Positions 2,487 through 57,849 of a stretch of DNA of 61,154 nt are shown one piece after another (the first letter of the stretch is position 1; every line of letters begins with the position of its first letter). A program made the position numbers and the translations under genes. Source of the DNA: a plasmid. The notes beneath the pieces were generated by a model. It did not search any database. It saw only the letters and a program-made list of their open reading frames with translations, and was not told the DNA's origin. The stretch lies in sequence record NZ_CP121836.1; one strand, written 5' to 3'.

Positions 2487-3565
2487 GAATTCAACTTCGA
2501 AGTGCGACACTCGCCTATGCCGCCTGACGGTACTCTTCGAATACCTTGACAGGCTGCCTGAATCCGAGACATTTCCGAGGTCGTAGGTTGAGCCACTGCT
2601 CCGCTCTCCTGACATCCTCGTCCGTGACCTCTCTCAGGTCTGTTCCCTTTGGGATAAACTGCCTCAACAGCCCATTGCTGTTCTCGTTCAGACCGCGCTC
2701 CCACGAAGAGTAAGGGTGCGCAAAGTAAGTCTCGGCACCCAGCGCTTCCTCTATCGCCTTGTGTTCGGCAAACTCGCCGCCGTTGTCAAAGGTGATGGTA
2801 TGCACCTGCTCGATGTAGGGCGTTAACATCTCGATTATCGCATCCCGCACCACCCCAGCCTGTTTGCTCGCGACCCGCTTGACCAGATAGAGCCGGCTCT
2901 TGCGCTCCACCAGGGTGACCAGTGCACCTGTGCCTTGCTTGCCCAGCACCGTGTCCGCCTCCCAATCACCGAGCCGCTCCCGGCTATCGACGATAGCCGG
3001 CCGTTCATCAATAGAGCGGGCTTCCTTGATGGGAGAACGCAGGCTGCTCGCCCCCCTTGCGGTAGCGCTTGTGGCCCTGGCGCAGATGGCGGTACAACTG
3101 GCCACCCCGGGCTTTGTCGGCGGCCACATGGCGGTATATCCACTCGTGACTCACCATGAGGCCTATCTGCTTGCCCACCGCGCTTATCTGCTCCGGGCTC
3201 CACCACCAGGCGAGTGTCAGCTCGACAAACTGGATGACATCGGCAGATAGCCGAGATTTGGCCGCACTGGCCCGTCGGTGGGTGGCGTGCTGATGCGCAT
3301 TGTCTGGCTGGTAGCCCTGCGGCCCGGCGTTACGACGCAGCTCCCGGTAGAGGGTGGAGCGATGAACGCCAATGGCGCGTGCGGTGGCAAGGATGGACAT
3401 CCCCTGTGCGCGAAGCACCGATAACTGGTATCGTTGCCCCTCGGTCAACTGCTGATAGCTCATGGTGATACTGCTTTTACTTTGGCGAGCAGAAGGGTAC
3501 CACCAATCAGCAGTTGGCCACCTCTCGCCATTCATCCATGAGTGTCGCACTTATTATCTGAATTC
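2487..3565 (-). mobile_element. IS30-family insertion sequence (about 1079 bp). It is inserted in the 5'-UTR of the first (qnrVC) cassette, between attI1 and the qnrVC start.
   Basis: Imperfect 26-bp terminal inverted repeats GAGTGTCGCACTTATTATCTGAATTC (3540-3565) and GAATTCAACTTCGAAGTGCGACACTC (2487-2512) flank an IS30-type transposase. No clear target-site duplication seen. Confidence 0.75.
2515..3463 (-). pseudogene. IS30-family DDE transposase split into two overlapping ORFs (3008..3550 and 2515..3129). Frameshift is near a C7/G7 homopolymer at about 3050-3056.
   Basis: N-terminal HTH MSYQQLTEGQRYQLSVLRAQGMSILATARAIGVHRSTLYRELRRN. C-terminal DDE region GDWEADTVLG...TLVERKSRLYL...TFDNGGEFAEH...SWERGLNENSNGLLRQFIPKGTDL (IS30 signature). 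The two frames overlap at 3008-3129. Confidence 0.7.
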
Positions 3566-3813: not shown

Positions 3814-4827
3814 ATGAAAACCGCCACTGCGCCGTTACCACCGCTGCGTTCGGTCAAGGTTCTGGACCAGTTGCGTGAGCGCATACGCTACTTGCATTAC
3901 AGCTTACGAACCGAACAGGCTTATGTCCACTGGGTTCGTGCCTTCATCCGTTTCCACGGTGTGCGTCACCCGGCAACCTTGGGCAGCAGCGAAGTCGAGG
4001 CATTTCTGTCCTGGCTGGCGAACGAGCGCAAGGTTTCGGTCTCCACGCATCGTCAGGCATTGGCGGCCTTGCTGTTCTTCTACGGCAAGGTGCTGTGCAC
4101 GGATCTGCCCTGGCTTCAGGAGATCGGAAGACCTCGGCCGTCGCGGCGCTTGCCGGTGGTGCTGACCCCGGATGAAGTGGTTCGCATCCTCGGTTTTCTG
4201 GAAGGCGAGCATCGTTTGTTCGCCCAGCTTCTGTATGGAACGGGCATGCGGATCAGTGAGGGTTTGCAACTGCGGGTCAAGGATCTGGATTTCGATCACG
4301 GCACGATCATCGTGCGGGAGGGCAAGGGCTCCAAGGATCGGGCCTTGATGTTACCCGAGAGCTTGGCACCCAGCCTGCGCGAGCAGCTGTCGCGTGCACG
4401 GGCATGGTGGCTGAAGGACCAGGCCGAGGGCCGCAGCGGCGTTGCGCTTCCCGACGCCCTTGAGCGGAAGTATCCGCGCGCCGGGCATTCCTGGCCGTGG
4501 TTCTGGGTTTTTGCGCAGCACACGCATTCGACCGATCCACGGAGCGGTGTCGTGCGTCGCCATCACATGTATGACCAGACCTTTCAGCGCGCCTTCAAAC
4601 GTGCCGTAGAACAAGCAGGCATCACGAAGCCCGCCACACCGCACACCCTCCGCCACTCGTTCGCGACGGCCTTGCTCCGCAGCGGTTACGACATTCGAAC
4701 CGTGCAGGATCTGCTCGGCCATTCCGACGTCTCTACGACGATGATTTACACGCATGTGCTGAAAGTTGGCGGTGCCGGAGTGCGCTCACCGCTTGATGCG
4801 CTGCCGCCCCTCACTAGTGAGAGGTAG
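3814..4827 (+). CDS. intI1: Class 1 integron integrase IntI1 (337 aa).
   Basis: Full-length IntI1 sequence [57 protein letters not shown]...[61 protein letters not shown]. Confidence 0.97.
3901..3929 (-). promoter_or_regulatory. Integron cassette promoter Pc, weak PcW variant (-35 TGGACA, 17-bp spacer, -10 TAAGCT), located inside intI1.
   Basis: The plus strand shows AGCTTA (3901-3906), 17 nt, then TGTCCA (3924-3929). No TGN extended -10. Confidence 0.7.
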
Positions 4828-5004
4828 GGCAGCGCAAGTCAATCCTGGCGGATTCACTACCCCTGCGCGAAGGCCATCGGTGCCGCATCGAACGGCCGGT
4901 TGCGGAAAGTCCTCCCTGCGTCCGCTGATGGCCGGCAGCAGCCCGTCGTTGCCTGATGGATCCAACCCCTCCGCTGCTATAGTGCAGTCGGCTTCTGACG
5001 TTCA

Positions 5005-5029
5005 GTGCAGCCGTCTTCTGAAAACGACA
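5005..5029. repeat. IRi, the 25-bp inverted repeat at the intI1 end of the Tn402-family class 1 integron. Outer end at 5029.
   Basis: Plus strand GTGCAGCCGTCTTCTGAAAACGACA is the reverse complement of TGTCGTTTTCAGAAGACGGCTGCAC. Confidence 0.9.
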
Positions 5030-5036
5030 GTTTTTG

Positions 5037-5137
5037 TGTCATTTTCAGAAGACGACTGCACCAGACAACGCGGTTTGAAGGCTGTTGTGCAGTCGTCTAT
5101 TGAACGAACAGTATCAGGAGTCCGCTGCACGAATGAT
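5037..5137. repeat. Tn402-family IRt-like terminus: 25-bp IR TGTCATTTTCAGAAGACGACTGCAC at 5037-5061 plus about 75 bp of related end sequence. It lies in inverse orientation 7 bp from IRi.
   Basis: Exact IRt 25-mer. The following about 75 bp are roughly 70% similar to the 98 bp between IS6100 and IRt at 57727-57824 (shared GGCTGTTGTGCAG...TATCAG...CTGCAC). Confidence 0.7.
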
Positions 5138-5335
5138 GACCTCAAGCCGGTTCTGGTCGCGCTGGCGACCGATCTGCCCCTGGATGTGCGATACCGCGAC
5201 CACGATCTTTCCGGCGATTGGGCGGGCTACCGCGAATGCCACATCAAGCCCGACCTGCTGCTGATCTACCGCAAGTCCGACGCCGACACCCTGCGACTGG
5301 CGCGGCTTGGCTCCCATAGCGAGCTGTTCGGCTGA
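5138..5335 (+). pseudogene. RelE/ParE/YafQ-family toxin gene, 5'-truncated. Only the C-terminal about 65 codons remain and no antitoxin gene is present.
   Basis: Translation DLKPVLVALATDLPLDVRYRDHDLSGDWAGYRECHIKPDLLLIYRKSDADTLRLARLGSHSELFG matches the YafQ/RelE C-terminal consensus (GxWxGYRxxHIxPDxLLIY...RxGxHxxLF). Upstream residues show no toxin similarity and coincide with the IRt-like end. Confidence 0.7.
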
Positions 5336-5461
5336 TGCCAGTCGCCTTGTCCGCCAAACGATCATTAGGCGGCCAAACCGGACGCCTGTCCGAAAACATC
5401 TTGCGCAACGGGATGACGGACAATAAGATAGGCGGACGGTATAACGGACAAATGGGCGGAA

Positions 5462-6037
5462 ATGGCACTCATCGGCTATGCGCGGGTATCGACGGCGGAA
5501 CAGGACACCGCCTTGCAGACGGATGCGCTGCGCAATGCAGGCTGCGAACGGGTTTTCGAGGACACGGCATCCGGGGCCAAGGCAGACCGGCCCGGCTTGG
5601 CCGATGCGCTGGCTTATCTGCGCGATGGCGATGTGCTGGTCGTCTGGCGGCTGGATCGGCTTGGCCGCTCCCTGCCGCACCTGATTGAGACGGTCGGCAA
5701 GCTGGAAGCACGGGGCGTCGGCTTCCGCTCGTTGACTGAAAACATCGACACCACCACGCCGGGCGGACGGCTCATCTTCCATGTGTTCGGTGCGCTGGGC
5801 CAGTTCGAGCGCGACCTGATCCGCGAGCGCACCAAGGCCGGGTTGACCGCTGCCGCCGCACGCGGGCGCAAAGGCGGACGCAAGCCGGTTGTCACTGCCG
5901 ACAAGTTGCAACGAGCGCGGGAGCTTGTCGCCAACGGCTTGAATGTCCGCGAGGCCGCCGCACGCCTCAAGGTAGGAAAAACCGCTCTCTACGCTGCCTT
6001 GCAGGCGGCCAGTTCTGGCAGTGCAGCCGACTCCTGA
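5462..6037 (+). CDS. Serine recombinase / resolvase (191 aa). Either TniR/TniC-like of a Tn402-family element or a plasmid multimer-resolution resolvase targeted by res-site hunters.
   Basis: MALIGYARVSTAEQDTALQ...DVLVVWRLDRLGRSL...FHVFGALGQFERDLIRERT, with catalytic Ser in the YARVST motif and a C-terminal HTH. The roughly 400-bp upstream region could hold a res site. Confidence 0.85.
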   Translation: MALIGYARVSTAEQDTALQTDALRNAGCERVFEDTASGAKADRPGLADALAYLRDGDVLVVWRLDRLGRSLPHLIETVGKLEARGVGFRSLTENIDTTTPGGRLIFHVFGALGQFERDLIRERTKAGLTAAAARGRKGGRKPVVTADKLQRARELVANGLNVREAAARLKVGKTALYAALQAASSGSAADS

Positions 6038-6043
6038 TATTTC

Positions 6044-6068
6044 GTGCAGTCACCTTCTGAAAACGACA
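6044..6068. repeat. Third Tn402-type 25-bp repeat, an IRi-like variant with 3 mismatches, in the same orientation as IRi. Located immediately after the resolvase stop.
   Basis: Plus strand GTGCAGTCACCTTCTGAAAACGACA compared with GTGCAGCCGTCTTCTGAAAACGACA at 5005-5029. Confidence 0.7.
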
Positions 6069-6085: not shown

Positions 6086-9000
6086 TTATAGTTGCCCGCC
6101 TACACCCTTGAACTTCTCAACAAAGGCAGCGATCTTCTGGAAGACAGTCTGCTTCTTGGTCAGGAATTGCGGGTTCAATGGGCTCATCTTAGGCAGAACC
6201 GCATTGAGCTCCGTGCCATTCTCAGTGGCGAACTCGCGCTTCAGTGAGTTGGTGATATAGCGCTTGGCGGCTTCTGCGTTCAGGCCCTCGTCGCTAATCA
6301 GCTCTGCAGCCTCTCGCTGCTGTTCCGCTTGAGCGAAAGTGAAGAAGGCCTCAATTACGCTGGCCTTGTCGCCGATCTGGTCCAAATCGGTCTGGTTGAT
6401 GAAGTCCACCACCAGACTTTCTTTCGCGCGGTTGCCCAGGCTGGCACGAATCACACGCCGCACTTCATCCACCAGTTCAGACTTGCTCTTGGTCTTCTTG
6501 TTGTGCTCGAAGATCAGTTCCAGGATGTAGTCCAGGTTGATTTCCTGAGACTTCAATAGGTCCACCTCAAAGACCACGTCATCCCAGTCAATGGTGGACT
6601 TCTCTTTCTCGGCCCCAGCCTTCTCACGGCGTAGCCAGTCGCGCACGTCGTTGTAGGTCGAGCGATAGTCCTGAACCTTCCGCTCGGGCGGGAGCGTGAT
6701 GGCTTGCAGCGCGGTCAGATCTTCATCACTCAGGTAGTGCTTGGCCTTGAATGCCTCGACCGCTGCCGGGTCGGTCATGTCGACGCTTTGCAATTCCTTC
6801 AAGCTGGCAAATTCGTCATAGTTCTGCAGCACGTTCTCGACGCGTAGGTACTCGCCGAACAGCTTGGCGAAGGCTTTTTTGTCAGCTTCCTTTTCAATGG
6901 CCGATGGATCGGGAAAGCGGGTTTCCAGCTCGTTCACCACGGCGACAAAACCACGTCGCGCCTCACCGGTGGCCGCATCGGTGAAGCCTTCCATGTACTC
7001 CTGGTAGCTCTTCTCCAGCACCACGTTCTTGGTGTTCTTATCACCGAACAAGGTGATGGCGTCGATGGTCGCCTGTTCCAGGTCGCGGAAGGTGACGATG
7101 TTGCCGAAGGTCTTGGTGGCGTCAAAGATGCGGTTAGTACGCGAATAGGCCTGCATCAGTCCGTGGAAGCGCAGATTCTTGTCGACAAACAACGTGTTGA
7201 GCGAGGGCGCATCGAAGCCGGTCAGGAACATACCCACCACGATGAGCAGGTCGATCTCCTTGGCCTTCACCTGCTTGGCCAGGTCTCGGTAGTAGTTCTG
7301 GAAGCCGTTGCTATCCACGCTGAAGTTGGTTTTGAACAGTGCGTTGTAATCCGCAATGGCCGCGCTCAAGAACTCCTTGGCGCTGCTGTTCATTGCGGAT
7401 ACATCAAAGCTTTCATCCTGAATATCGCCGATAGCATCCTGCTCCTCATTGGCGGCGAAGGAGAAGATGGTCGCCACGCGCAAAGGCTTGTCGCTATCCT
7501 TCTGCAAGGTCTTGAACGACTCGTAATACAGCTTGGCGGCATCGACGCTGCTCACGGCAAACATAGCGTTGAAGCCCTTGTTGCCCGCGTGCAGGCGGTG
7601 GGTTTTCTGCCGGAAGTTGTTCAGGATGTACTGGGTAATTTCGCGGATGCGGTCAGGATGCAGCAGGGCTTGCTTGTTCTCTGCCGCACTCAGCTTCTTT
7701 TCGTCCTTCTCGGTCTCGATGGCCTTGAACTGCGGGCGCACATCGTTGTAATCCACCTTGAACTTCAGCACCTTCTCATCGCGAATCGCGTCGGTGATCA
7801 CGTAGGAATGCAACTCGCGGCCGAACACGCTGGCGGTGGTTTCCGCACCCAGCGCGTTCTCCGGGAAGATTGGGGTGCCGGTAAAGCCAAACTGATAGAA
7901 CCTCTTGAACTTCTTCTGCAGGTTCTTCTGCGCTTCACCGAACTGGCTGCGGTGACATTCATCGAAGATGAACACGACCTGTTTGCCGTAGATGGGCAAA
8001 TCACCTTCACTCTTCATCAGGTTATTGAGCTTCTGGATGGTGGTGACGACGATCTTGTTGTCGTCCTTCTCCAGATTGCGCTTGAGGCCAGCCGTACTAT
8101 CAGAGCCATTCACGCTGTCGGGAGAAAAGCGCTGGTATTCCCGCATGGTCTGGTAGTCCAGATCCTTGCGGTCCACCACGAAGAACACCTTGTCGATGAA
8201 ATCCAGCTCCGTCGCCAAACGCGCCGCCTTGAAGCTGGTCAGCGTCTTGCCGGAACCGGTGGTGTGCCAGATAAAGCCACCGCCCTCAAGACTGCTCCAG
8301 CTCTTGGCCTGATAGGCGCTCTTGATCTTCCACAGAATGCGCTCGGTGGCTGCGATTTGATAAGGGCGCATCACCAGCAGTGTATCGCTCACGTCGAACA
8401 CCGAGTAATGCAGCAACACATTAAGCAGGGTGTGTTTCTGGAAGAAGGTGGCCGTGAAGTCCTTCAGGTCCTTGATCAGCGTGTTGTCCGCCTTCGCCCA
8501 GTTCATGGTGAAGTCGAAGCTGTTCTTGTTGCGCTGCGTGGTGTTGGCGAAGTAGCGGCTGTCGGTGCCGTTGGAGATCACAAACAGCTGCAAATACTTG
8601 AACAAGGAATTCTCGCTGTTGAAGCTCTCCTTGCTGTAGCGATGCACCTGGTTGAAAGCCTCGCGGATGGCCACGCCGCGCTTCTTCAGCTCTACTTGTA
8701 CCAGTGGCAGGCCATTGACCAGAATCGTCACGTCGTAGCGGTTGGCGTGGCTGCCGGCTTGCTCGAATTGCTTGATCACCTGCACCTTGTTGCGGGCAAT
8801 GTTCTTTTTATCGAGCAGATAGATGTTCTGAATGCGGCCATCGTCAAACACGAAGTCATGGATGTAGTCATCATGAATTTTGCGCGTCTTGTCGACGATG
8901 CTGTCGCTGGGCTTGTCCAACCAGGTCTCAACAAAACGCGCCCACTCGCCTTCGGCAAACTGCACGTTGTTCAGCGCCTGCAGCTGTACCCGCACATTCG

Positions 9001-9184
9001 CCAGCAAGGCTTGCGGCGTGTTCAGCGTGGGCAGAAATTCGTAACCCTGATTGACCAGATCCTGAATCAGCTCGCGCTCCAGATCACTTTCGCTCTGGTA
9101 GCCTTCTGCGACCTTCCACTCTGGGCTGTATTTATCCAGAACGATAAAGTTGTTCGATTCGGCGATGGTTTTGTAGTCGCTCAT
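6086..9184 (-). CDS. hsdR: Type I restriction enzyme R subunit HsdR (1032 aa).
   Basis: SF2 helicase motifs (TGSGKT, DECH box [10 protein letters not shown]) and typical HsdR N-terminus [25 protein letters not shown]. Confidence 0.95.
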
Positions 9185-10216
9185 TCTTTCGCACCTTTGT
9201 TTTGCAGCAGTTTTTTTACTTCACGGTCGAAATCAGATTCGATGCGCTGCTGCTTGTTGAATTTTTCATATTCGGCAAAGGCTTTTTGTTCCGCCTGCTG
9301 GCGGGAAACCGTTCCGAAACCGTCCAGAATCCGGTACTCATTGAAGGCAAGAAATTTGTTTACGCTCTCGGCAAAGCTCTCCATCGTGAAGGTATTGCGT
9401 CGCTCGATAATGCCTTCGATGTAGTCGAAAAAAAGCTGAAACAGCGCGCTCCAGTTTTTTGATATCGGCTTCGCTCAAATAATTCTTTGCCACGTTTGCA
9501 TCTGACTTCAACACGCGGCCATCCGGCGCATTTTTATAAGTGCTCATGCCCATCAAGGGCTTGCTGGCATCGGCATTCAAGGCAATGATTTCTGCCGCCG
9601 TATGGCCGGTAATCGCAAAATGGAACTTGTCCTGCACATGGGCGTAAAACAGCCGGGTAGTCTCCGATTTCGGGTCGTAATCGATGCTGCACTCGGCAAA
9701 AATATCGGTGATTTGTTGGTAAATCCGCCGCTCGCTGGCGCGGATCGAGCGCACCCGCTCCAGCAGCTCGCGGAAATAGTCTTTACCAAAGAAACGGCCA
9801 TTCTTCAGGCGCTCATCATCCATGGCAAAGCCCTTGATGATGTACTCCTTGATCAGCTGGGTGGCCCAAATGCGAAACTGTGTGGCCTGTGCGGAATTCA
9901 CCCGGTAACCCACCGAGATCACCGCATCCAGGTTGTAGTACTCCAGCTTGCGTGTAACCTGACGCGCTCCCTCTTGTTGAACTGTTTCCAAAACGGAAAG
10001 AGTTGCCTCGCGCTGCAATTCGCCCGATTCGTAGATGTTGTCCAAGTGCTTGGAGATCGCCGCCACGCCCACGCCAAACAACTCGGCCATGCGCTTTTGC
10101 GTCAGCCAGATGGTTTCATTGCTGAGCAGCACCTCAACCTTGATCGCGCCATTGGGGGCGGTGTAGAGCAGGAATTCTGTCGTTTCATCCCGCAGCGTGA
10201 GATTGTGCTTGGACAT
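9181..10216 (-). pseudogene. rhuM: RhuM-family protein gene embedded in the type I R-M locus, apparently frameshifted near a T7/A7 homopolymer (about 9427-9433). Split into ORFs 9338..10216 and 9181..9384.
   Basis: The first ORF carries the RhuM-family core (MSKHNLTLRDETTEFLLYT...). The second ORF encodes the family C-terminus ...[30 protein letters not shown] in another frame. Confidence 0.6.
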
Positions 10217-10227
10217 GGCAATTCCCT

Positions 10228-11442
10228 TTATGCCTGAGCAACTGTGGGGGCTTCAGGCTTCGGGAAGCTCAACAGCAGATCGCGGTAATACTCGTATTGC
10301 TTCTGGCGTAACTCGATTTCGCGGGGCAAGCCTGCGGTGAGGGAAGCTGTCAACGCGTCGAATTTGTCGAGGATGGCGACGATGCGAGCCTGCTCGGCAA
10401 GCGATTTTTCAGGGTCGTCTGCGTAGGGTATAGGCAGCGCAAAGCCCTTGATGATGCTTGAATTCAGGTCACCTCTAGCGCCCTGGCCGAGCGCCTTAAT
10501 GTTTTCATAATTAAAGCTTACCCAGTGAAAGACATAACGGTACAAGGCCTTGGTGCTATCAATCTCCAAACAGCCGCAGTGCTGATTGGTTGTTAAGGGT
10601 ATCTTGTTGATCGCAGACCTGCCTGCCGTTGCTCCCGATATGGCAATGATTACGCAATTCGCCGGAATCCACTTCGCTGCGGATTTTTCTAAAGCCTTCT
10701 GCGTAATCTTGATTTCAGTACTCTCGATGTCCGAAAACTTGACCTCTTGGGTTCTTAGCCAGGGAATATCCCCGTCATCGTAATACTCTGGGTTGCCGGC
10801 CGTTGGCGTTCCGCCCGAGTACCATTTTTTCGTAACATCTCCCAACGTCTTCCACGCCACTTCCCCCTCTTCAAAACTCAACAACTGGTCGCGATAGTAG
10901 TTGTATTGTTTTTTGCGGGCGGTCAGCTCGGCGGTCAGCTCGGCGGTCAGCTCGGCGGTCAGCTCGGTGAAGGCGTCCAGTATGCGGACGATTTCAGCCT
11001 GGATTTCAAGCGATTTTTTGGGGTTATCCGGACAAGGGATGGGAATCTTTAACTCGTTTAAGACGGATTGCGTTTGACTGGGAACGCCGCCCGCCTGGTT
11101 CATCTCGCCAAGACCTACCGTTGTCAAGAAATAGTAAAGATATTTCGGCCAAACCTGCGCTTCATTAATTTCCGTATAAAAGATAGTGTCGACGGTCCAA
11201 AACGGAACATCGACGAAGAATAGATTGCCAAGCGAGCCCTTTCTCGGAATCAAGACTGATGGCTTGTTGTAGGCGTAGGTGTCCGCATATCGCATGATCC
11301 CGCCGGAGCCATAAACAGGAAATTCGCCATCGCCAAGCGACTTGTGATCTTTACCGTTCTTGATGCGCACAATGTCGCCAAGACGCTTGAACTCAACCCC
11401 ATCCGGGCAGTGTTCAGCGATTAGGTCATCAATACGACTCAT
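10228..11442 (-). CDS. hsdS: Type I restriction-modification specificity subunit HsdS, type IC (EcoR124-like), with a central TAEL tetrapeptide repeat array.
   Basis: Two target-recognition domains separated by a conserved central region containing [34 protein letters not shown]-terminal conserved region [16 protein letters not shown]. Confidence 0.9.
10921..10971. repeat. 12-bp tandem repeat (GGTCAGCTCGGC x about 4) encoding the TAEL repeats in the central region of HsdS.
   Basis: Plus-strand ggtcagctcggcggtcagctcggcggtcagctcggcggtcagctcggtgaagg. Confidence 0.9.
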
Positions 11443-12998
11443 GCCTTCAGCTCCTCGCCTTCAATCTCCGCCACGATGGCGTCGATGTCTTTGCGTAGCC
11501 GGTCGATCCTGGCAACCGTGGTTTTCAGCTCGGCATTGAGTTGAACGATGTCCACCACCTCGCGGGTGTCTTTGGCTTCGACATAGCTGCTAACCGAGAG
11601 GTTGTAATCGTTGGCGGCGAGGGCATCCAGGCTCACCGACTTGGCAAAGTGGTCCACCTCTTTCTTGCTATCAAACACCGCCATGATCTGCTCGATGTGC
11701 GAGTCCAGCAGCACGTTGTTGTTGGTTTCTTTCTTGAACAGGCCGCTGGCGTCGATGAACTGGGTATTGGAGTCTTTCTTATTCTTCGCCAGCACCAGAA
11801 TGTTCACGGCGATAGTGGTGCCAAAGAACAGGTTGGGCGCGAGCGCGATCACCGTCTCCACGTAGTTGTTGTCCACCAGGTACTGGCGAATCTTCTGCTC
11901 AGCACCGCCCCGGTAGAAGATGCCAGGGAAGCAGACAATCGCCGCACGGCCTTTGCTGGAGAGGTAACTCAAAGCGTGTAGTACAAAGGCGAAGTCGGCC
12001 TTGGACTTGGGCGCGAGCACGCCCGCTGGGGCAAAGCGGTCGTCGTTGATCAGGGTGGGGTCGTCCGAACCGATCCACTTCACCGAATACGGCGGGTTGG
12101 AGACGATGGCATCGAAGGGCTTGTCGTCGCCGAAGTGCGGGTCGATCAGGGTGTTGCCGAGCTGGATGTTGAACTTGTCGTAGTTGATGTTGTGCAAGAA
12201 CATGTTCATCCGCGCCAGGTTGTAGGTGGTGTGGTTGATTTCTTGCCCGAAGAAGCCGTCTTCGATGATGTGTGCGTCAAAGTGCTTTTTGGCCTGCAGC
12301 AACAGCGAGCCGGAGCCACAGGCGGGGTCATAAATCTTGTTGACGCTGGTTTGCTTGTGCATCGCAAGCTGTGCGATCAGCTTGGACACATGCTGCGGCG
12401 TGAAGAACTCGCCGCCCGACTTGCCCGCGTTCGCTGCGTAGTTGGAGATCAGGAATTCGTAGGCATCGCCGAACAGATCAATGCGACTGGCGTCGAAGCC
12501 GCCGAAGTCCAGCTCCGCCACGCGTTTGAGCACTTTGGACAGACGATCGTTCTTGTCTTTGACGGTGTTGCCCAGACGATTGCTGGTGGTATCGAAATCA
12601 GCAAACAGGCCTTTGATGTCGCGCTCGGAGGGGTAGCCGTTGGCGGAAGCTTCGATAGCGGCAAAGATGTTGGCCAGATCGGTGTTCAGGCTCTCATTGG
12701 TGTTGGCGTTGGCTGCGATGTTCACGAACAGTTGGCTGGGGTAGATGAAGTAGCCCTTGGTCTTGATGGCGTCATCTTTGGCAGCCGCGATATTCGGATC
12801 ACTGTCTGCCATGGCGGCGTAATTGACAGAAGAGTCGCCGCCGGTGATGTAGTCGACGAAGTTCTCGCTGATGAAGCGATAGAACAGCGAGCCCAGCACG
12901 TATTGCTTGAAGTCCCACCCATCGACGGCGCCGCGGACGTCATTGGCAATATCCCAGATCTTGCGCTGTAGGGCTGCGCGTTGTTCATTGCTTGTCAT
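11439..12998 (-). CDS. hsdM: Type I restriction-modification N6-adenine DNA methyltransferase HsdM (519 aa).
   Basis: N-terminal HsdM domain [23 protein letters not shown], the AdoMet motif, and the catalytic NPPY motif ([11 protein letters not shown]). Confidence 0.95.
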
Positions 12999-13213
12999 TT
13001 TAAAGTCCTGTTTCGATTCGTTGAGCCCTGCTCAGGCGCAATGCTTGAGCAGGAGTAAATGGGTTGTTACGGCAATAGGGCCGCGTTCTATCTCCCGGCC
13101 TTCTTCGCCTTGGGTCGATAGAAATCCTCGATTCTTCAGGCGGTCACCAACATATCGCCCGGCTTCTATCGCCCACCTATCGACGATAGTGCGCAGGTTG
13201 TCCGATAGGCTGC

Positions 13214-14851
13214 TCATGCCAGCGCCCAGTAGCGCCGCCAGCGCTTGTTACCCTCAAAGCGGACTTCCCCGCGCTCGATCAGCTCTTCCAGCGCGCGCTT
13301 GACTTGCTTGGGATGGATTTCGCCGCCGACGCGCTGATGGATGTCGCTGATGGCCGACCTGGGGTAGCGCTGCAGGTCTTCCAGTACCAGCGCGGCCAAG
13401 CGGTGCGGCTCAATGCGCTTGAGTGTGGTCTCGCCGGTGAACTGGAGGCTGCGCAGCAAGCTGGGGTCAACAAAATAGCGTGTTGCCTGGGTACGCCCGG
13501 CGCTTTGCACCAACTGCCAGTCCAGTAGGCGCTTTAGCCAAGGTTGCAATGCTTCAACCGACGGCAGCTCAAGCGACGTTACCAGCTCGCGTGCCGTCAG
13601 GGCATCGTGCTGCGCCAAGAGGCCCAACGCGATCCGCTCGCGCTGCGTGAGCTGGTAGGTCTGATCTGCTTTCGCAATGAAGTCGATGACCTCAGGCTTG
13701 AGAATGCGGCGGCGCACTGTCACCTGCACACGATCGTGGGTCTCGATCAACTCGGGAGCCGGGCGGCCCTGTGAGAGCAGTACCTCGAAGATCTTGTCGA
13801 AGCCGCTGCCTTCCCGCTCCATCAGTTTCAAGTCATGGAACAGTCGTGCCAGGTGTTCGTTACGGCGTACCGTAGTGTGGAGCACGTTCTGCGGCGAGAC
13901 GCCCAGCGGTAGCGGTCCAGGGTTGACCACTTCCAGCCGGTCTGGATGCAGGTTCAAGAAGATGTCACCGCGCTGGGTGTAGGGACGATGTACCAACGCG
14001 TTGACCAACAATTCGCGCACCACGATTTCATCGAAGGCGGGCACGTTCTGGCGGTACAGGCCATCGGGTAGTTCGTAGCGCTCGCGAAAGTCAGGCACCT
14101 CCTGCCAGACCGCTTCGATCAATTCCATCGGGCTTTGCGTGTGGTCGTCCCAGACCAGCTTGTTGACCTTCTGTCCGTGCTCGTCGTACTTGATGAACTG
14201 GATGACCGGAGCGGTGGTCAGTTGAGCGCGATGATGCTGGCGACCGAGACTGAGCACGCCCAGATTGGTGAGGTTCGGCCCTTGTGCGAGCTGATAGTGA
14301 TCGAGCAACTCATCGTCAGACTTCTCTTTCACGGACGGCTTGACGCGATCCGATGCGCGCAAGGCTTCGAGCAGCTTGTCGCGTTTGGCAGGATCAATTT
14401 CGGTACGTGGAACATGCAAGGTGGTTTGCGTTTCCCATGGCAATGCGGAACGCTCGCTGGCGAGGCGCATAACGTCATCGCCCGTCACGGGCTTGCTTTG
14501 GTCGGCTACGCGCAGGAAGTAGCGGCCGTCCGTGGTAGATGCAACGGCCATGGCGCGCGGAATGAGCAATTCGATGTATTGGCCGCCATTCGGGGCGATG
14601 GTGACATCCGGCAGCACCGTCACGTTGACCGTGCGCTCTGCCAGCTTGCGACGCAGTGTGTCTGGCAGGTCTGGAGGGACACGCTGATCGGCGGGAGGCT
14701 CGCTCTGGCCATCCTCGATCCCCAGCAGTAGGCGGCCACCGGTTGCATTGGCAAAGGCAATGCAATCCTTAGCAATTTCGTTCCAGTCCGCCGTCTTGCC
14801 AGTCACGGCCCGCAAGGACTTTTGGTCAAGGAGTTGCCCTTCCAAGCTCAC
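13214..14851 (-). CDS. ATP-binding protein with a divergent-AAA (AlbA_2/Schlafen-like) N-terminal domain and an HATPase_c_4-like C-terminal region. Often mis-annotated as a RecG-like regulator and commonly linked to R-M loci.
   Basis: 545-aa protein; domain architecture inferred from sequence pattern only. Sits immediately upstream of hsdM on the same strand. Confidence 0.6.
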   Translation of the reverse strand: MSLEGQLLDQKSLRAVTGKTADWNEIAKDCIAFANATGGRLLLGIEDGQSEPPADQRVPPDLPDTLRRKLAERTVNVTVLPDVTIAPNGGQYIELLIPRAMAVASTTDGRYFLRVADQSKPVTGDDVMRLASERSALPWETQTTLHVPRTEIDPAKRDKLLEALRASDRVKPSVKEKSDDELLDHYQLAQGPNLTNLGVLSLGRQHHRAQLTTAPVIQFIKYDEHGQKVNKLVWDDHTQSPMELIEAVWQEVPDFRERYELPDGLYRQNVPAFDEIVVRELLVNALVHRPYTQRGDIFLNLHPDRLEVVNPGPLPLGVSPQNVLHTTVRRNEHLARLFHDLKLMEREGSGFDKIFEVLLSQGRPAPELIETHDRVQVTVRRRILKPEVIDFIAKADQTYQLTQRERIALGLLAQHDALTARELVTSLELPSVEALQPWLKRLLDWQLVQSAGRTQATRYFVDPSLLRSLQFTGETTLKRIEPHRLAALVLEDLQRYPRSAISDIHQRVGGEIHPKQVKRALEELIERGEVRFEGNKRWRRYWALA

Positions 14852-15508: not shown

Positions 15509-16483
15509 TTGGAATGTACGTGGCCGGAAATTAGGGATGACATCCCTAATAGATGCGCAAACTTCCGAACCGGCAGCAAGGCAGAGAGCACCGGGCATAT
15601 CAATCCGAAGTATGGAAGTAGCCCTGGGCGGACGTTCTATACCCATATCTCCGACCAATACGCGCCCTTCAGCGCCAAGGTGGTCAACGTCGGCTTGCGC
15701 GACTCGACCTATGTGCTCGATGGCCTGCTGTACCACGAGTCTGACTTGCGTATCGAGGAACACTACACCGACACGGCGGGCTTCACCGATCATGTGTTCG
15801 GCCTGATGCACTTTCTGGGATTCCGGTTCGCGCCGCGCATCCGCGACCTGGGCGACACCAAGCTGTTCATTCCCAAGGGCCATACTGCCTACGATGCACT
15901 CAAGCCGATGATTAGCAGCGACAGGCTGAACATCAAGGCTATTCGCGCTCATTGGGATGAAATCCTACGGCTGGCCACTTCGATCAAGCAGGGCACGGTG
16001 ACGGCCTCGCTGATGCTGCGCAAGCTCGGCAGCTATCCGCGCCAAAACGGCTTGGCCGTCGCCCTGCGCGAGCTGGGGCGCATCGAGCGCACGCTGTTCA
16101 TTCTGGATTGGCTGCAAAGCGTGGAGCTGCGCCGCCGCGTCCATGCGGGGCTGAATAAGGGCGAGGCGCGCCACGCGCTGGCCAGGGCGGTCTTCTTCTA
16201 CCGATTGGGTGAAATCCGCGACCGCAGTTTTGAGCAGCAGCGCTACCGGGCCAGCGGCCTCAATCTGGTGACGGCGGCCATCGTGTTGTGGAACACGGTC
16301 TATCTGGAGCGTGCCACCAGTGCTTTGCGTGCCCACTGCAAGGCGCTGGACGATACGTTGCTGCAATATCTGTCCCCGCTGGGGTGGGAGCATATCAACC
16401 TGACCGGCGATTACCTATGGCGCAGCAGTGCCAAGGTCGGTGCGGGGAAGTTCAGGCCATTGCGACCGCTGCCACCGGCTTAG
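15509..16483 (+). pseudogene. tnpA: Tn3-family (Tn21/Tn1721/Tn5393-subgroup) transposase TnpA, C-terminal about 300-aa fragment. Recognisable similarity starts around 15590.
   Basis: [31 protein letters not shown]...[18 protein letters not shown]...KFRPLRPL, the Tn3-family DDE C-terminal region. The gene stop overlaps the 38-bp IR. Confidence 0.8.
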
Positions 16484-50988: not shown

Positions 50989-53900
50989 GGGGTTCTAGGG
51001 ATTTTCCGTCCAAAAACGACAAAGTGCTCTGGAGGCCGCGCCGTCCGTGGCCTCCAGAGGGGTATTACTTTTCGCTGACGGGTAAATATCCCTCGATTGA
51101 GCGCATAAGCTCCTCCAGATCTGGCAATTTTTCGCTCAATTCGAAGTGGTAAGTCCCCTTGAGGTTAATGTTGTGCCAGGCCACAGGGGATGCCTGTTTG
51201 ACGATATCTATTCTCTTGGTATCTCCTTGGTATTCGAAGCTGGTCAACAGCTGGCTGAGTATCCTGGAGTTGAAGTAAACGATGGCATTGGTGACCAGGC
51301 GAGCGCACTCATTCCATAGCTGGATTTCTTCGTCTGAACTGCCCCGGAACTGATCCCCATTGACGCTGCTCACGGCCCGACGCAGTTGGTGATAGGCCTC
51401 TCCCCGGTTCAGCGCGCGCTGAACATAGTTTCTTAAACTGGCATCATCGATGTAGCACAGTAGATAATTCGCTTTCACCAGGCGATTGTATTCCGTCAGG
51501 GCTTCCAGCAGCGGGTGATTGCGCTTGTACTCCGAGAGCTTTCTCACCAAGGTGGCTTGCGTTGTTTTCCGCTGCTTAAGTGATACTGCAATCCGTTGGA
51601 TGGTATCCCAGTGCTGCGCAATACGATGGGTATTGATTGGCTTTTTTAAGCACAGCTGAATTCGGTGTTCTTTGTCTTCCTTGACATCAAACATGTCATT
51701 GATCACTTTGCCAACCTGGGCATAGCGTGGGGCAAACTGGTATCCGAACAGATCCAGTAACGCGAAGTTCACATGGTTCACCCCATGGGTATCGGTTGAG
51801 AGCACATCCGGAATGATGTCTGACGTATTGCTCATCAACAAATCAAAGATGTAGTGCGATTCATGTTCGTTGGCGCCGATCACTCTGGCGTTGATCGCAG
51901 CGTGATTGGCGATCAAGGTCATGGCAGAAACACCTTTTTGAGTGCCAAAGTACTTCGACGAATAACGGGTTTTGAAGGTCTCGCGCCGGGCTTCGAACTT
52001 TTGACCATCGGCACTGGCGTGGATCACATCTTCCTGGATGTTGTAGTACCGGAAGATGGGTAGCTTGGCTGTCGCGTTATTGATGTTGTCGTTAGCAGCA
52101 TTCAATGTTTCCAGGCGAAGATAGTTCGCCTGGATAGTGCTGAGCTGATCATAGGTACGATCAGAGATCTGTGCCATGCCGTAAATGCCTTGATTGGTTG
52201 CATTGCCGACCAGAATTGCCAACAGGTCATATTCATGGGAACGGCTTCTGGATTGGGAACCCAGCACATGAGCGAAGCAGTCAATGAAACCGGTGTCACG
52301 ATCAACCATGCGCAGTACATCCGCAATCCCCGTTGTGGGAATTTGCTGGAAGAAGGGATTGTTGACCAGATGATGTTTGCTGGCCGAAGGCAGGCGCCAG
52401 AAGCGTTTACCCTGCGGATTACGCAAGATGATATTCCGGTTGTCTTCCTGTTCAAGATATTCGCCGACTTCGTACAAACGGGTATCCAATTCCATGGCCA
52501 TCTGTTTGATCAGCTTTTCAGGCTCCTCCGCTAATTTTGTAAAATGGCTCTGTTGAAGCAGCGTATATTTGTTTTTTCGCCAATGTTCCCCGTCGATCAG
52601 GTCGGCGTCGAGTGCCCGGTATTTAGTGATATCAGGCAGCGTCAGCTGGCCATTCAGGCGATCAGGAATCTGTTGATAGAGGAACCACTCATAACGATCG
52701 ATCAGGATATTCCCTTCACCATCCAGCAGGAATTCACGTGATTTTTTGGAAAGGAGTCTGGTGTCGGCAGTTTGCAACTGAGCGTCCTGGCCGTTGAGTT
52801 CGTTTTGTGTTTTCGCCAAGGCGGCCGCTAAGTGCTGGGTGCCGTCGCAGCCTTCGAAGCGCAGACATAGGAACAACTCTCGCAGCAAACCTTTCCGCAG
52901 ACTTTCTTTCTCGTCGCAGTACTGCCACATGGCTTCATCGACCGATCGTCGCTGCTCGTTCAGGAAGAGACATACAGATTCCAGATCCCTTTTGGTCAGC
53001 AGGCTCAGTGCTTGCTGTCTTACTGTTGCAAACGGTAGTTGCAGATCAATGCTGTCATCAATGAACAGGTGCAGTACTTCAGCTGCCTTGCTGACATTTT
53101 TAGCTGCTTTTTGCCAATCCTTAAACACCGCTTCCTGCGCATAATCCTTTGCCTTCTGTTTGGTCTGTCTGACATGATGCACAAAGCCATCGGCAATACG
53201 TTCCAGCGCTTGCTGCCATCGCGTTTGAAGATAGCACAATAAATACAGCCATTGGCTGCCTACGGTTTGACGTTTCAGTTTGGCACCGTAGTAGTCGACT
53301 TTCTCTGCCAGGTGTTGCAGATTTTTCTGCGACAGTGATAGCGTGCTCAACAGCAGATCCACTTCCGGCATCCAATGCTGGATATGGCGATAGACAATCA
53401 GTTCTTTCTCCAACTCGGTTCCGGTGAAGTTACGAGCCGATTGTCGCAACTGTCGGAACGGCAGTGGACCTGTGCCGTTCACGAGCTCCGCCAGTGCTTG
53501 CTTAAGACCGCGTGACATTGCACGCTCAAGGTGCGCGGCCATGTGTTCCTGTTCGTCTCCCACCACCTGACTGATGATCTTTTGCAGCGTGCTGTAGGCA
53601 GGGATTGCGATCTTCTGCCCCGAACAATATTCAATGGCCGCATCGAAGAGGTGCCTAGGCGCTGTCCAGGCTCTGGCTTGCTGGGATAAGTAATCTCTCA
53701 ACGCCGCTCCATGGTCTTTGACATTCCAGCGCTGGTAGTTGCAGAGCTGGAAAACACGTTGGTAAATCCGTTCGTTCTCTTTTGGCGTGAGATTAAAGGG
53801 TCTACAGCCTGGGCCTGGTAGAACGGTTTGATAAACGTATTTGAGGTCCTGCTTGATCTGATGAAAGCCGGGATTCAGCACCACCGGCTTGGCTTTGAAA

Positions 53901-54226
53901 TAGCCCAGCAGTACCACCAGCATGTAACGCTGGCCCCGATGACGGAGGCTTTTAGCGATCGCCAGTTCCTTATCGTTCAGCGAGAAAAAGAAGCGTTGGT
54001 CGGCGGAGGTGAAAGCGGGGGGGTCCATATAACTCATCTTGTTCTGCCTCGGACAAGATTTGGACACGTTCTTCGAATGCCATGGATTTAGCCCAAAAAG
54101 ACTAAATCTTACTCAAACAGAGCCCAAATAGGGATCTCGAAAAAAAGTAATACCCCTCTGGAGGCCACAGACGGCGGGGCCTCCAGAGCACTTTGTCGTT
54201 TTTGGACGGAAAATCCCTAGAACCCC
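50989..54226 (-). mobile_element. IS1071-like Tn3-family insertion sequence (3238 bp): tnpA only, flanked by inverted repeats of about 88 bp starting GGGGTTCTAGGGATTTTCCGTCC. No direct target duplication.
   Basis: Left end 50989-51076 and right end 54139-54226 are near-identical inverted repeats. The 5-bp flanks are TGATT and TTGGT, not identical. Confidence 0.8.
51065..54067 (-). CDS. tnpA: Tn3-family transposase TnpA (1000 aa).
   Basis: DUF4158-like N-terminus (RFFFSLNDKELAIAKSLRHRGQRYMLVVLLGYFKAKP) and a DDE_Tnp_Tn3 C-terminal region. Confidence 0.9.
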   Translation of the reverse strand: MSKSCPRQNKMSYMDPPAFTSADQRFFFSLNDKELAIAKSLRHRGQRYMLVVLLGYFKAKPVVLNPGFHQIKQDLKYVYQTVLPGPGCRPFNLTPKENERIYQRVFQLCNYQRWNVKDHGAALRDYLSQQARAWTAPRHLFDAAIEYCSGQKIAIPAYSTLQKIISQVVGDEQEHMAAHLERAMSRGLKQALAELVNGTGPLPFRQLRQSARNFTGTELEKELIVYRHIQHWMPEVDLLLSTLSLSQKNLQHLAEKVDYYGAKLKRQTVGSQWLYLLCYLQTRWQQALERIADGFVHHVRQTKQKAKDYAQEAVFKDWQKAAKNVSKAAEVLHLFIDDSIDLQLPFATVRQQALSLLTKRDLESVCLFLNEQRRSVDEAMWQYCDEKESLRKGLLRELFLCLRFEGCDGTQHLAAALAKTQNELNGQDAQLQTADTRLLSKKSREFLLDGEGNILIDRYEWFLYQQIPDRLNGQLTLPDITKYRALDADLIDGEHWRKNKYTLLQQSHFTKLAEEPEKLIKQMAMELDTRLYEVGEYLEQEDNRNIILRNPQGKRFWRLPSASKHHLVNNPFFQQIPTTGIADVLRMVDRDTGFIDCFAHVLGSQSRSRSHEYDLLAILVGNATNQGIYGMAQISDRTYDQLSTIQANYLRLETLNAANDNINNATAKLPIFRYYNIQEDVIHASADGQKFEARRETFKTRYSSKYFGTQKGVSAMTLIANHAAINARVIGANEHESHYIFDLLMSNTSDIIPDVLSTDTHGVNHVNFALLDLFGYQFAPRYAQVGKVINDMFDVKEDKEHRIQLCLKKPINTHRIAQHWDTIQRIAVSLKQRKTTQATLVRKLSEYKRNHPLLEALTEYNRLVKANYLLCYIDDASLRNYVQRALNRGEAYHQLRRAVSSVNGDQFRGSSDEEIQLWNECARLVTNAIVYFNSRILSQLLTSFEYQGDTKRIDIVKQASPVAWHNINLKGTYHFELSEKLPDLEELMRSIEGYLPVSEK

Positions 54227-54464
54227 TTGGTGTGGGGTTTAGCGGGCTTTGCCCGCCTTTCCCCCCTGCCGCGCAGCGGTGGGGCGGTGTGTAGCCTAGC
54301 GCAGCGAATAGACCAGCTATCCGGCCTCTGGCCGGGCATATTGGGCAAGGGCAGCAGCGCCCCACAAGGGCGCTGATAACCGCGCCTAGTGGATTATTCT
54401 TAGATAATCATGGATGGATTTTTCCAACACCCCACCAGCTCCCCCCCTTCCTGGGTTTGCAGGT

Positions 54465-54560
54465 TTAGGGGCGTGACAGTTACGCCGGGGGTTCGTGACA
54501 GTTACGCCGGGGGGGGCGTGACAGTTACGCCGGGGGCGTGACAGTTGCGCCGGGGGACGG
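54465..54560. repeat. Four direct repeats of a 22-bp unit (GCGTGACAGTTACGCCGGGGG) immediately upstream of the truncated MobV relaxase gene.
   Basis: Copies at about 54470, 54492, 54517 and 54538; the last has T to G. Confidence 0.7.
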
Positions 54561-54911
54561 ATGGCGTTTGCGATCATGAGGGCGAAGAAGCTCAACAGCA
54601 TGGGCACGGTGGCGGCTGCGTTGCAGCACTGCTACCGCGACCGCGAGACGCCGAACGCCGATCAGGAGCGCACACCGGACAACGATCACCTGGCGGCCAG
54701 ATCGACCGATGAGGCGATGGGCAAGCTCAGGGAGCGGTTGCCGGAGAAGCGGCGCAAGGATGCGGTGCTGGCGGTCGAATACGTGATGAGCGCCTCGCCG
54801 GAGTGGTGGCAGACCGCAAGCGCCGACCAGCAGCGGGAGTTCTTCAAGCGATCGACCGAGTGGCTGGCCGCATGCCGAAAATTCAGATGCTCGGCGACGG
54901 CGATGAACTGA
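54561..54911 (+). pseudogene. MobV/Pre-family relaxase N-terminal fragment (the so-called truncated virD2 of floR contexts).
   Basis: MAFAIMRAKKLNSMGTVAAALQHCYRDRETPNADQERTPDN resembles the MobM-type N-terminus. The ORF ends after 116 aa. Confidence 0.55.
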
Positions 54912-55012
54912 ACAAGGGAAATGAGCGGTATCCTGCCAGACAGGATACCGACATTCACGAGGTTTCGATGGTTAGTGCGCCGCATCGGAGCGGGCCTGCT
55001 ACCAGTCGTCGG

Positions 55013-57726: not shown

Positions 57727-57824
57727 CACACGAGTATTGAGCATAGTCGAGATTGGTGCAGATCACTTCTGATATTGAACTGTCAGGAGCTGGCTGCACA
57801 ACAGCCATTACGCCCAATCAACTG

Positions 57825-57849
57825 GTGCAGTCGTCTTCTGAAAATGACA
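57825..57849. repeat. IRt, the 25-bp inverted repeat of the Tn402-family tni end, with the In4-type 123-bp end next to IS6100. Outer end at 57849, facing the cassette array.
   Basis: The plus strand reads GTGCAGTCGTCTTCTGAAAATGACA, separated from IS6100 by 98 bp. Confidence 0.85.

Follow-up and report, generated by a model that had tools for sequence, protein, structure and literature searches.

What is the segment of about 1 kb that stands back to back with the integron on a plasmid sequence of 61,154 nucleotides (NZ_CP121836.1; the whole stretch is called the window here)? At this locus the inverted repeat IRi of a class 1 integron is followed within a few base pairs by a second Tn402-type end, which leads into a toxin gene remnant ('yafQ) and a serine resolvase gene and then to a third repeat. 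The question has a wider bearing, as clinical class 1 integrons are without transposition and resolution genes and their continued movement between plasmids is only partly understood. A preliminary description made from the sequence alone saw here either the products of res-site hunting by Tn402-family elements next to a resolvase, altered by deletion and inversion, or a mini-element bounded by Tn402-type repeats. We consider it very probable that positions 5037-6068 form a non-autonomous res-site hunter of the Tn5053/Tn402 family which belongs to the ISPa17/IS4782 group (Table 1).

A unit with Tn402-type ends

The window was searched with the IRi 25-mer as query, allowing up to three mismatches and using 100 shuffled controls. 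Four matches were obtained where none would be expected, which speaks against chance matches, a possibility that had been kept in mind at the outset. Three of the four are those of the preliminary description: IRi, an exact IRt sequence on the opposite strand after a 7-bp spacer (GTTTTTG), and an IRi-like repeat with three mismatches in the orientation of IRi. The last of these had been placed directly after the resolvase stop codon (6035-6037), but it starts 6 bp beyond it. One of its mismatches, C to T at 6052, is private to the window; the other copies examined read GGCGAC.

The left repeat is continued, as had been noticed, by about 75 bp of IRt-like sequence. When 5037-5137 is aligned with the window's own IRt end (57849 down to 57727), 74 of 100 positions are identical (25/25 in the repeat and 49/75 beyond it) and the sub-terminal repeats come in the same order. 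This architecture is shared with the Tn402 IRt end at 57849 and with the left ends of all family members described below. Two traits of the Tn5053/Tn402 family are thus present: 25-bp TGTCRTTTTCAGAAGRCGRCTGCAC-type terminal inverted repeats that face outward, and asymmetric sub-terminal arrays, IRt-like on the left (repeat, spacer, inverted repeat, direct repeat) and IRi-like on the right (repeat and tandem direct repeat). Since the outer TGTC of both repeats (5037 and 6068) faces outward, they enclose the 1,032 bp as transposon ends do; flanking insertions would give the opposite orientation.

Table 1. Features of the mini-element and of the adjoining integron (positions in the window; ORF, open reading frame)
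Feature	Position	Strand	Details
Integron i-end	4982-5029	-	IRi (exact) and adjoining second direct repeat
Integron IRi	5005-5029	-	0 mismatches to IRi 25-mer
Spacer GTTTTTG	5030-5036		7 bp; GTTTT, one copy of the integron target duplication; TG, leftover between target and element
Mini-element	5037-6068		1,032 bp; t-type end, 'yafQ, three-subsite res (predicted), serine resolvase, i-type end
t-type end of mini-element	5037-5134	+	25-bp repeat 5037-5061, inverted sub-terminal repeat 5087-5110, direct sub-terminal repeat 5111-5130
t-type 25-mer of mini-element	5037-5061	+	2 mismatches to IRi; exact IRt sequence
yafQ/relE toxin remnant	5138-5335	+	5'-truncated, without antitoxin; Pfam YafQ_toxin positions 26-88 of 88; TIGR00053 positions 29-91 of 92
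Predicted res	5348-5452	+	Six GTCCG/CGGAC cores; three-subsite layout
Predicted res site I	5348-5375		TGTCCGCCAAACGATCATTAGGCGGCCA, imperfect palindrome; putative crossover within 5355-5368
Serine resolvase	5462-6037	+	191 aa, full length, PF00239 E = 1e-48
i-type end of mini-element	6021-6068	-	25-bp repeat 6044-6068 and tandem second direct repeat 6021-6043, which contains the resolvase stop codon
i-type 25-mer of mini-element	6044-6068	-	3 mismatches to IRi
intI1	3814-4827	+	337-aa ORF; cassettes run leftwards from intI1
IRt-end fragment	57727-57849	-	123 bp; about 25 bp from IS6100 transposase ORF (56901-57701); the window's only other IRt copy
Second IRt 25-mer	57825-57849	-	Exact IRt sequence

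That the 1,032 bp behave as a discrete unit is clear from their distribution. At least 329 plasmids of PLSDB carry the unit with an identity above 99%. Complete copies with the window's left module, 42 in all and drawn from plasmids, genomes and metagenomes, show 33 flank combinations (24 left and 28 right flanks) and are always cut at the 25-mers. In addition, four contigs of assemblies cover an element alone (1,032, 1,025, 1,027 (1,025 + 2 bp) and 2,145 bp), and contigs of this sort are what short-read assemblies yield from repeated mobile units.

Relatives were sought by searching for the resolvase in one genome per species and then for bracketing repeats (comparison loci carry L numbers). 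The family so defined has elements of 1,025, 1,032, 1,479, 1,495, 1,993, 2,143-2,152 and 3,292 bp, of which the longer (1,479-3,292 bp) have intact toxin-antitoxin pairs: res and the resolvase gene are accompanied by relB and a 93-aa yafQ in the 1,479-bp form, and by a hypothetical gene, vapC and vapB in the form of about 2.15 kb (L004, L006). The left end is of t-type in all members and, like Tn402 IRt, consists of the 25-mer, about 25 bp, an inverted repeat and a direct repeat; the right end is of i-type, like Tn402 IRi, with the 25-mer directly followed by GRAATRTCAGGAGTCGGCTGCAC. Perfect 5-bp duplications flank nine distinct insertions of the longer forms (2,145 bp: ATATA, GCGCG, CGCCC and GCTCA; 1,479 bp: CGCGC, CGGCG and AATTT; 1,993 bp: GGCGT; 3,292 bp: TGCCT), and one 1,032-bp copy has the duplication AACTG. 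It is the mini-element of the preliminary description, offered there as an alternative, that these exact boundaries, unit-only contigs and duplications bear out. Genes tniABQ occur in none of the complete repeat-bounded elements of the family. With none in its 1,032 bp, the mini-element is non-autonomous; a full Tn402-type tniABQ set lies on the same plasmid as an element in L095, so a helper can co-reside with it.

The cargo of the window copy is reduced. The toxin remnant is short of 25-28 N-terminal codons according to the Pfam and TIGR00053 profile matches, in agreement with the earlier estimate of about 27. A toxin-antitoxin system of type II and of the YafQ/RelE-RelB kind comprises a full toxin and a cognate antitoxin gene, and the mini-element has neither; the remnant is probably a pseudogene and presumably inactive. 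The t-end of the mini-element is unlike those of the 1,479-bp form and of the form of about 2.15 kb and is fused to yafQ at about codon 26. As all 42 metagenome hits to the window-type t-end carry the identical 'yafQ junction, this deletion must be old and fixed. An ancestor with tni genes or an intact toxin-antitoxin pair adjoining a t-end of the window type was not found among these hits.

A non-coding block conserved across the family and in the transposon TnPsy42 begins exactly at 5348, where the predicted res starts. The resolvase has the N-terminus MALIGYARVST, with the serine-recombinase active-site motif GYARVST. The preliminary description had called the gene tniR, but the protein is 90-96% identical to TnpR of TnPsy42 as against 53-60% to Tn402 TniR (that of R751). 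To judge from these comparisons, it is a functional analogue of TniR and not an orthologue. The exact protein is encoded on at least 1,000 contigs, only under generic names.

Res sites, the integron and the surroundings

Tn5053/Tn402 elements prefer targets in or near res sites that a resolvase serves, as a rule with the i-end closest to the resolvase gene of the target. Members of the present family are found beside foreign resolvase genes, and most of the longer relatives are placed a short way upstream of one. In 13 contexts such a gene stands next to an element end and is directed away from the element, at a distance of at most 450 bp in all contexts but one (735 bp); it is on the i-end side in 9 loci and on the t-end side in 5. 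Examples are resP of IncN (L089), a parA-type resolvase gene (L088) and the recombinase gene of pKPX-1 (L001). This placement is res-site hunting, as described for the Tn5053/Tn402 family (PMC7765201). In the window the right neighbour is hsdR, so a resolvase-adjacent insertion is not encountered there. Family members also have other Tn402-type ends near them, at distances of 4-190 bp, in L027, L023, L001, L006, L024/L025 and L028/L029; the distance is 4 bp in L027, which at 2.2 kb also has a gene identical to Tn402 tniR, and 39 bp in L023. The hunting part of the original proposal stands, since it explains why IRi is found beside a resolvase. The inversion is not needed, as the outer TGTC ends already face outward, and the only deletion seen is the old junction of t-end and 'yafQ.

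Comparison of the different forms revealed mosaics. The window copy differs from the 1,025-bp form at 2 positions in 5037-5368 and at 113 in 5369-6068, and from the 1,479-bp form at 21 positions in 5138-5354 and at 3 in 5355-6068. The switch at 5368/5369 also divides the window from L095, the window from L096 and L006 from L004. Identity thus drops from about 99-100% to about 84% at the same point in four independent pairs, while the fifth pair switches oppositely at 5354/5355. All breakpoints fall within 5355-5368 (CAAACGATCATTAG), the centre of the palindrome TGTCCGCCAAACGATCATTAGGCGGCCA, which we predict to be res site I; their position inside it is evidence for the use of res in exchange, and the resolvase would be the enzyme that acts on this res. 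Left modules are of three types and right modules of at least three, and most of the combinations occur. The integron-linked left flank is seen with seven right flanks and three right modules, and one right flank is paired with three different left flanks.

How the integron came to lie beside the mini-element can be read from related plasmids. The intI1 DNA of the integron shares 99.9% identity with the regions that are annotated as intI1 in L001 and L002. L090, a small plasmid of IncP-6-like type, has GTTTT on either side of the integron alone (IRt 6156 to IRi 14411), from which it follows that the integron inserted in this pentamer, which lies outside the t-end at a distance of 2 bp, and did so with IRi towards the resolvase; the insertion is about 310 bp from res. 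The spacer GTTTTTG is found in 13 PLSDB records as well as in the window (Pseudomonas, Aeromonas, Vibrio, Klebsiella, Escherichia and Citrobacter), and its identity across records points to a single ancestral integron insertion. In plasmid pS28-3 of Aeromonas salmonicida (L088) the block from the integron IRt to the i-end of the element is flanked by ATTTA on both sides. KJ850907.1 preserves the empty site as reconstructed, intact (160/160) and situated upstream of a parA resolvase gene. The duplication and the empty site together indicate that integron and element transposed en bloc. This empty-site sequence was not found in the window. About 112 Klebsiella plasmids of the pKPX-1 type are marked by another, independent insertion of an integron at a distance of 190 bp from the element. 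Back-to-back ends of this kind had been called atypical; in fact IRi adjoins the mini-element in at least 125 PLSDB plasmids and has been reported beside ISPa17 (PMC6409357, PMC6614342), so that the arrangement is both common and documented.

The probable history begins in a small IncP-6-like plasmid, where the mini-element lay upstream of parA. GTTTT, 2 bp outside the t-end, was then the target of a class 1 integron of In4 type, which inserted with IRi nearest the resolvase. The pair later spread as a unit, with en-bloc transposition (from the integron IRt to the i-end) as one route and exchange at res as the other.

The IRt-end fragment near the other end of the window is inverted as read from the integron. 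We take it to be an In4-type inverted fragment of the integron 3' end; it is not the partner of the end at 5037. The integron's own outer IRt is missing from the window. No composite duplication can consequently be checked, the integron has lost its pair of usable outer ends and the composite is currently stranded. The loss probably came about through an IS6100 rearrangement. The IS6100 ORF is flanked by the 123-bp fragment on one side and, on the other, by floR and an IS3000-type Tn3-family transposase gene (56901-57849, 51065-56227). On the integrase side, an IS30-family transposase gene (2515-3550) lies between attI1/intI1 and a qnrVC cassette. It is split into the overlapping ORFs 3008-3550 and 2515-3129 (minus strand), which suggests a frameshift or a pseudogene.

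To the right of the mini-element the junction consists of 16 bp followed by the hsdR stop codon, so that hsdRSM starts 17 bp from the i-end. The type I restriction-modification module (6086-14851) contains hsdR, a RhuM/Fic-like gene (9338-10216), hsdS, hsdM and a 545-aa ORF. It is 98-99% identical to that of large Aeromonas plasmids and 72% identical to that which follows resP in the IncN plasmid L089, where the mini-element precedes resP. Six base pairs shared between L089 (element, resP, hsdRSM) and the window were considered as a possible link and rejected as an alignment artefact. The hsdS gene (10228-11442, minus strand) contains a perfect 12-bp tandem repeat of 4.2 copies at 10918-10967, which encodes a TAEL run in the central region. 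In type IC systems (EcoR124I/II) the copy number of the TAEL motif sets the length of the recognition-site spacer, and the repeat may be a specificity-switching site. Beyond the module, 15509-16483 encodes the C-terminal 324 aa of a Tn3-family (TnAs1/ISPa38-like) transposase at the junction with the backbone, which is of IncU type (pRA3/pFBAOT6-like) and extends from about 16.5 to 49.9 kb.

Two observations concern t-ends in other plasmids. A 150-bp partial second copy of the t-end and the start of 'yafQ is present in L087 (11113-11262) and in IncP-6 KPC plasmids such as L099, and in many IncP-6/IncG plasmids the blaKPC-2 accessory region has this copy at one of its edges (at least 80% of the query for this junction is covered in 99 PLSDB records); in the IncP-6 KPC plasmids it throws no light on the original insertion. 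In p4782-IMP (L096, 8516-12300) another Tn402-type t-end is followed by a resolvase gene, dps and katG, which replace the 3' part of the integron. This suggests that the mini-element family has cargo-carrying relatives.

Mobility of the mini-element and alternative explanations

As a non-autonomous hunter, the mini-element has kept complete t-type and i-type transposase-binding ends, with a module of Tn3-family type (toxin-antitoxin remnant, res, tnpR) in place of tniABQ and cargo. It would move only if TniA, TniB and TniQ were supplied in trans by a resident Tn402/Tn5053-type element, and would insert with a 5-bp duplication and a preference for res regions situated upstream of foreign resolvase genes. 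Its resolvase and res could resolve cointegrates and plasmid multimers. The res would also make it a target for other res hunters and could recombine with the res of related copies, thus swapping element halves together with flanking DNA. Mobilisation by TniABQ in trans is suggested by the fact that the resolvase is the sole enzyme common to all forms, that ends and 5-bp duplications are of the TniA type and that tniABQ can co-reside with an element.

Several points weigh against this reading. None of the pairs of ends in the window (5029, 5037, 6068, 57849) has a 5-bp duplication, and this includes 5029 with 57849 or 6068, for which the preliminary description had proposed a search: the flanks are GTTTT to the right of 5029, TTTTG to the left of 5037, CCCTG to the right of 6068 and ATCGT to the right of 57849, so that the mini-element itself lies between TTTTG and CCCTG. 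The empty site of its right junction was not found, the 16 bp there have no traceable origin and homology starts only at the hsdR stop codon. The genes tniA, tniB and tniQ are absent from the 1,032 bp, which hold only 'yafQ and the resolvase, and from the window, where the 123-bp IRt fragment is the sole tni trace found; mobility cannot be exercised there. In addition, a duplication is kept in only 1 of the 33 flank combinations of the 'yafQ forms as against 9 of 15 for the longer forms, which implies that standard transposition of the 'yafQ form is rare or is quickly obscured. Half-exchange at res, with swapping of flanks, and adjacent deletions are plausible causes of such losses; an example of the latter is L011, where the i-end abuts approximately codon 40 of another resolvase gene. 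Finally, mobilisation in trans, action of the resolvase on res and the benefit of resolution to the integron are all things that we infer, and the published accounts credit movement to 'ISPa17 transposases' (PMC6409357, PMC9952335, PMC10537328).

According to those accounts, elements of the ISPa17 type are autonomous insertion sequences that encode their own transposase (the resolvase-like protein, the adjacent small ORF or both), which also moves integrons. We regard this as unlikely. Some serine recombinases do act as transposases, and the resolvase has a weak match to the IS607 transposase family, well below threshold (25 bits, cut-off 110). However, the 1,032- and 1,479-bp forms have a single enzyme, which is a small serine resolvase of canonical type and sits behind a res of three-subsite layout. 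The extra ORF of ISPa17 has no Pfam match and that of IS4782 only a sub-threshold match to WYL, and both are missing from forms that still have target duplications. Moreover, 5-bp duplications and arrayed, asymmetric Tn402-type end repeats of 19-25 bp are the signature of TniA and not of serine transposases, and the ends and duplications found here are TniA-like in this sense.

The two other explanations would deny that the 1,032 bp are a transposable unit of this family. The ends could be relics that remained after three Tn402-family elements had inserted separately around a plasmid resolvase and the region had then undergone deletion and inversion. Res hunters do accumulate at res sites, as the Tn402-type ends close to family members illustrate, but this origin is very improbable in view of the outward-facing TGTC ends that enclose the segment, its identical boundaries in 33 flank combinations, the contigs that are exactly the unit and the relatives with the same ends and target duplications. 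Hardly credible is the trapping of a Tn3-family fragment, a toxin-antitoxin-res-tnpR stretch like that of TnPsy42, between Tn402-like repeats that arose by chance or secondarily. The resolvase and res are indeed close to those of TnPsy42 (85% identity in DNA, 90-96% in protein), where tnpA follows tnpR. The unit, however, has no tnpA, its terminal repeats are 25-bp repeats of Tn402 type that form complete arrays and are not lone 25-mers, and homology with TnPsy42 ends exactly at the second i-repeat.

Our preferred reading, that of a Tn402-type hunter mobilised in trans, would leave the overall picture unchanged, as both the group and the arrangement have been described; it departs from the papers in assigning movement to TniABQ in trans in place of an 'ISPa17 transposase'. 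Sequenced resistance plasmids with such a mini-element beside an integron number well over a hundred and include carriers of NDM, KPC, IMP and VIM; composites of the two can transpose as a single unit. The mini-elements escape notice in routine analyses because annotation gives only the names 'recombinase family protein' and 'YafQ toxin'. Once recognised, they account for the odd back-to-back integron ends, flag res site I as a likely recombination hotspot that swaps flanking resistance regions and indicate that the resolvase called a transposase in papers is likely to be mis-assigned. We would go further only tentatively. It is possible, and somewhat less than an even chance, that the following is both correct and new to the literature: ISPa17-type elements are without a transposase of their own and make up a broad family, modular in build, of Tn5053/Tn402 res hunters that are non-autonomous, have a Tn3-type toxin-antitoxin-res-TnpR module as their sole payload and act as portable resolution sites. 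If so, they would attract tni-defective class 1 integrons, which would regain a res, a resolvase and a usable end, so that composites could transpose and resolve. Exchange of res with res at one fixed point would reshuffle flanking resistance regions between plasmids and would explain why almost no copy of the 'yafQ type keeps its target duplication.

Comparison with known systems

The mini-element is apparently an unnamed 1,032-bp member of the ISPa17/IS4782 group. We found no name for it in the literature, and ISPa17 and IS4782 are known to us from papers and not from ISfinder entries. The traits of the group, as judged from the published descriptions and from the L096 sequence, are found in the mini-element. 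ISPa17 comes from the IncP-6 plasmid Rms149 (Haines 2005, as cited in PMC6409357, PMC6614342, PMC9952335 and PMC12607642). The citing papers describe it as an atypical insertion sequence with 25-bp repeats that equal or nearly equal IRi and IRt of Tn402, a toxin-antitoxin pair and 'two putative transposases'. It adjoins IRi of ΔTn402 integrons in pNOR-2000, pAX22, pPC9, pJB12 and pMOS94-like plasmids (PMC6409357, PMC6614342). ISPa17 and the integron have been proposed to move en bloc, with 5-bp direct repeats as evidence (PMC6409357, PMC6614342, PMC12607642; Tn7516 and Tn7517, PMC9952335).

Judged from the published repeat sequences and from gene content, ISPa17 appears to be the form of about 2.15 kb (L004, L006). 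It resembles the mini-element in its 25-bp Tn402-like repeats, its resolvase-type gene, its toxin-antitoxin module and its place beside the IRi of ΔTn402. The published right inverted repeat (IRR) of ISPa17 (PMC9952335) equals the right repeat of the window except for the private change at 6052, and the window's module of res, resolvase and right end is 99.6% identical to the type that carries this IRR. The window element differs in its length of 1,032 bp, in having another t-end and in carrying the truncated yafQ where the 2.15-kb form has the hypothetical gene and vapBC.

IS4782 is part of Tn7700 in p4782-IMP (its locus is our L096) and has been described as having Tn402/ISPa17-like 25-bp repeats, yafQ and a resolvase, perhaps mobile alone or with the integron (PMC10537328). 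Its left part (IRi, GTTTTTG, t-end and 'yafQ) is identical to the window up to 5368. IS4782 differs in its length of 1,430 bp and in its right module, which is of a third type with a 188-aa resolvase and a 127-128-aa ORF; the divergence from 5369 onward indicates exchange at res.

TnPsy42 (PMC7157771) has vapBC, res and tnpR in the same gene order as the vapBC-carrying forms, with 85% DNA identity and a toxin-antitoxin pair beside res and tnpR. There, a Tn3-family DDE transposase gene (ISPsy42 family) follows tnpR, whereas the module of the mini-element is set inside Tn402-type ends. Traits of the Tn3 family (Tn3000 subgroup) are accordingly missing from the unit, which has no tnpA and has terminal repeats of Tn402 type. 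Tn3-family elements such as TnPsy42 are expected by family to have long Tn3-type terminal repeats of about 38 bp. In TnPsy42 (L005, 5665-5700) the 25 bp that separate tnpR from tnpA agree with the i-end repeat at 16 of 25 positions and end in AAAATGACA, where homology with the mini-element stops; they may be a decayed repeat or a chance match, and as a sign of descent from the mini-element the match is not significant.

The closest parallels to the proposed mode of movement are other Tn402-type elements. The Tni-defective class 1 integrons In0 and In2 were mobilised in trans by Tn502 in experiments reported in PMC7765201. These integrons and Tn6606 (PMC7765201) share with the mini-element family intact 25-bp ends, the lack of a complete tni set, 5-bp repeats, insertion in or near res and, as proposed here for the mini-element, dependence on tni in trans. 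They differ in retaining tni remnants with mer or int cargo, whereas the mini-element family has no tni remnant and a resolvase of Tn3-family (Tn3000 subgroup) type. Tn6006, a composite of Tn6007 and Tn6008 (PMC5460862), and a class 1 integron with Tn512 (bioRxiv 10.1101/2022.09.12.507718) resemble the composite of L088, in that two adjacent Tn402-type elements move from their outermost ends and leave a single 5-bp duplication. One partner in those cases is large and has some or all of the tni genes; here it is a 1-kb module of res and resolvase.

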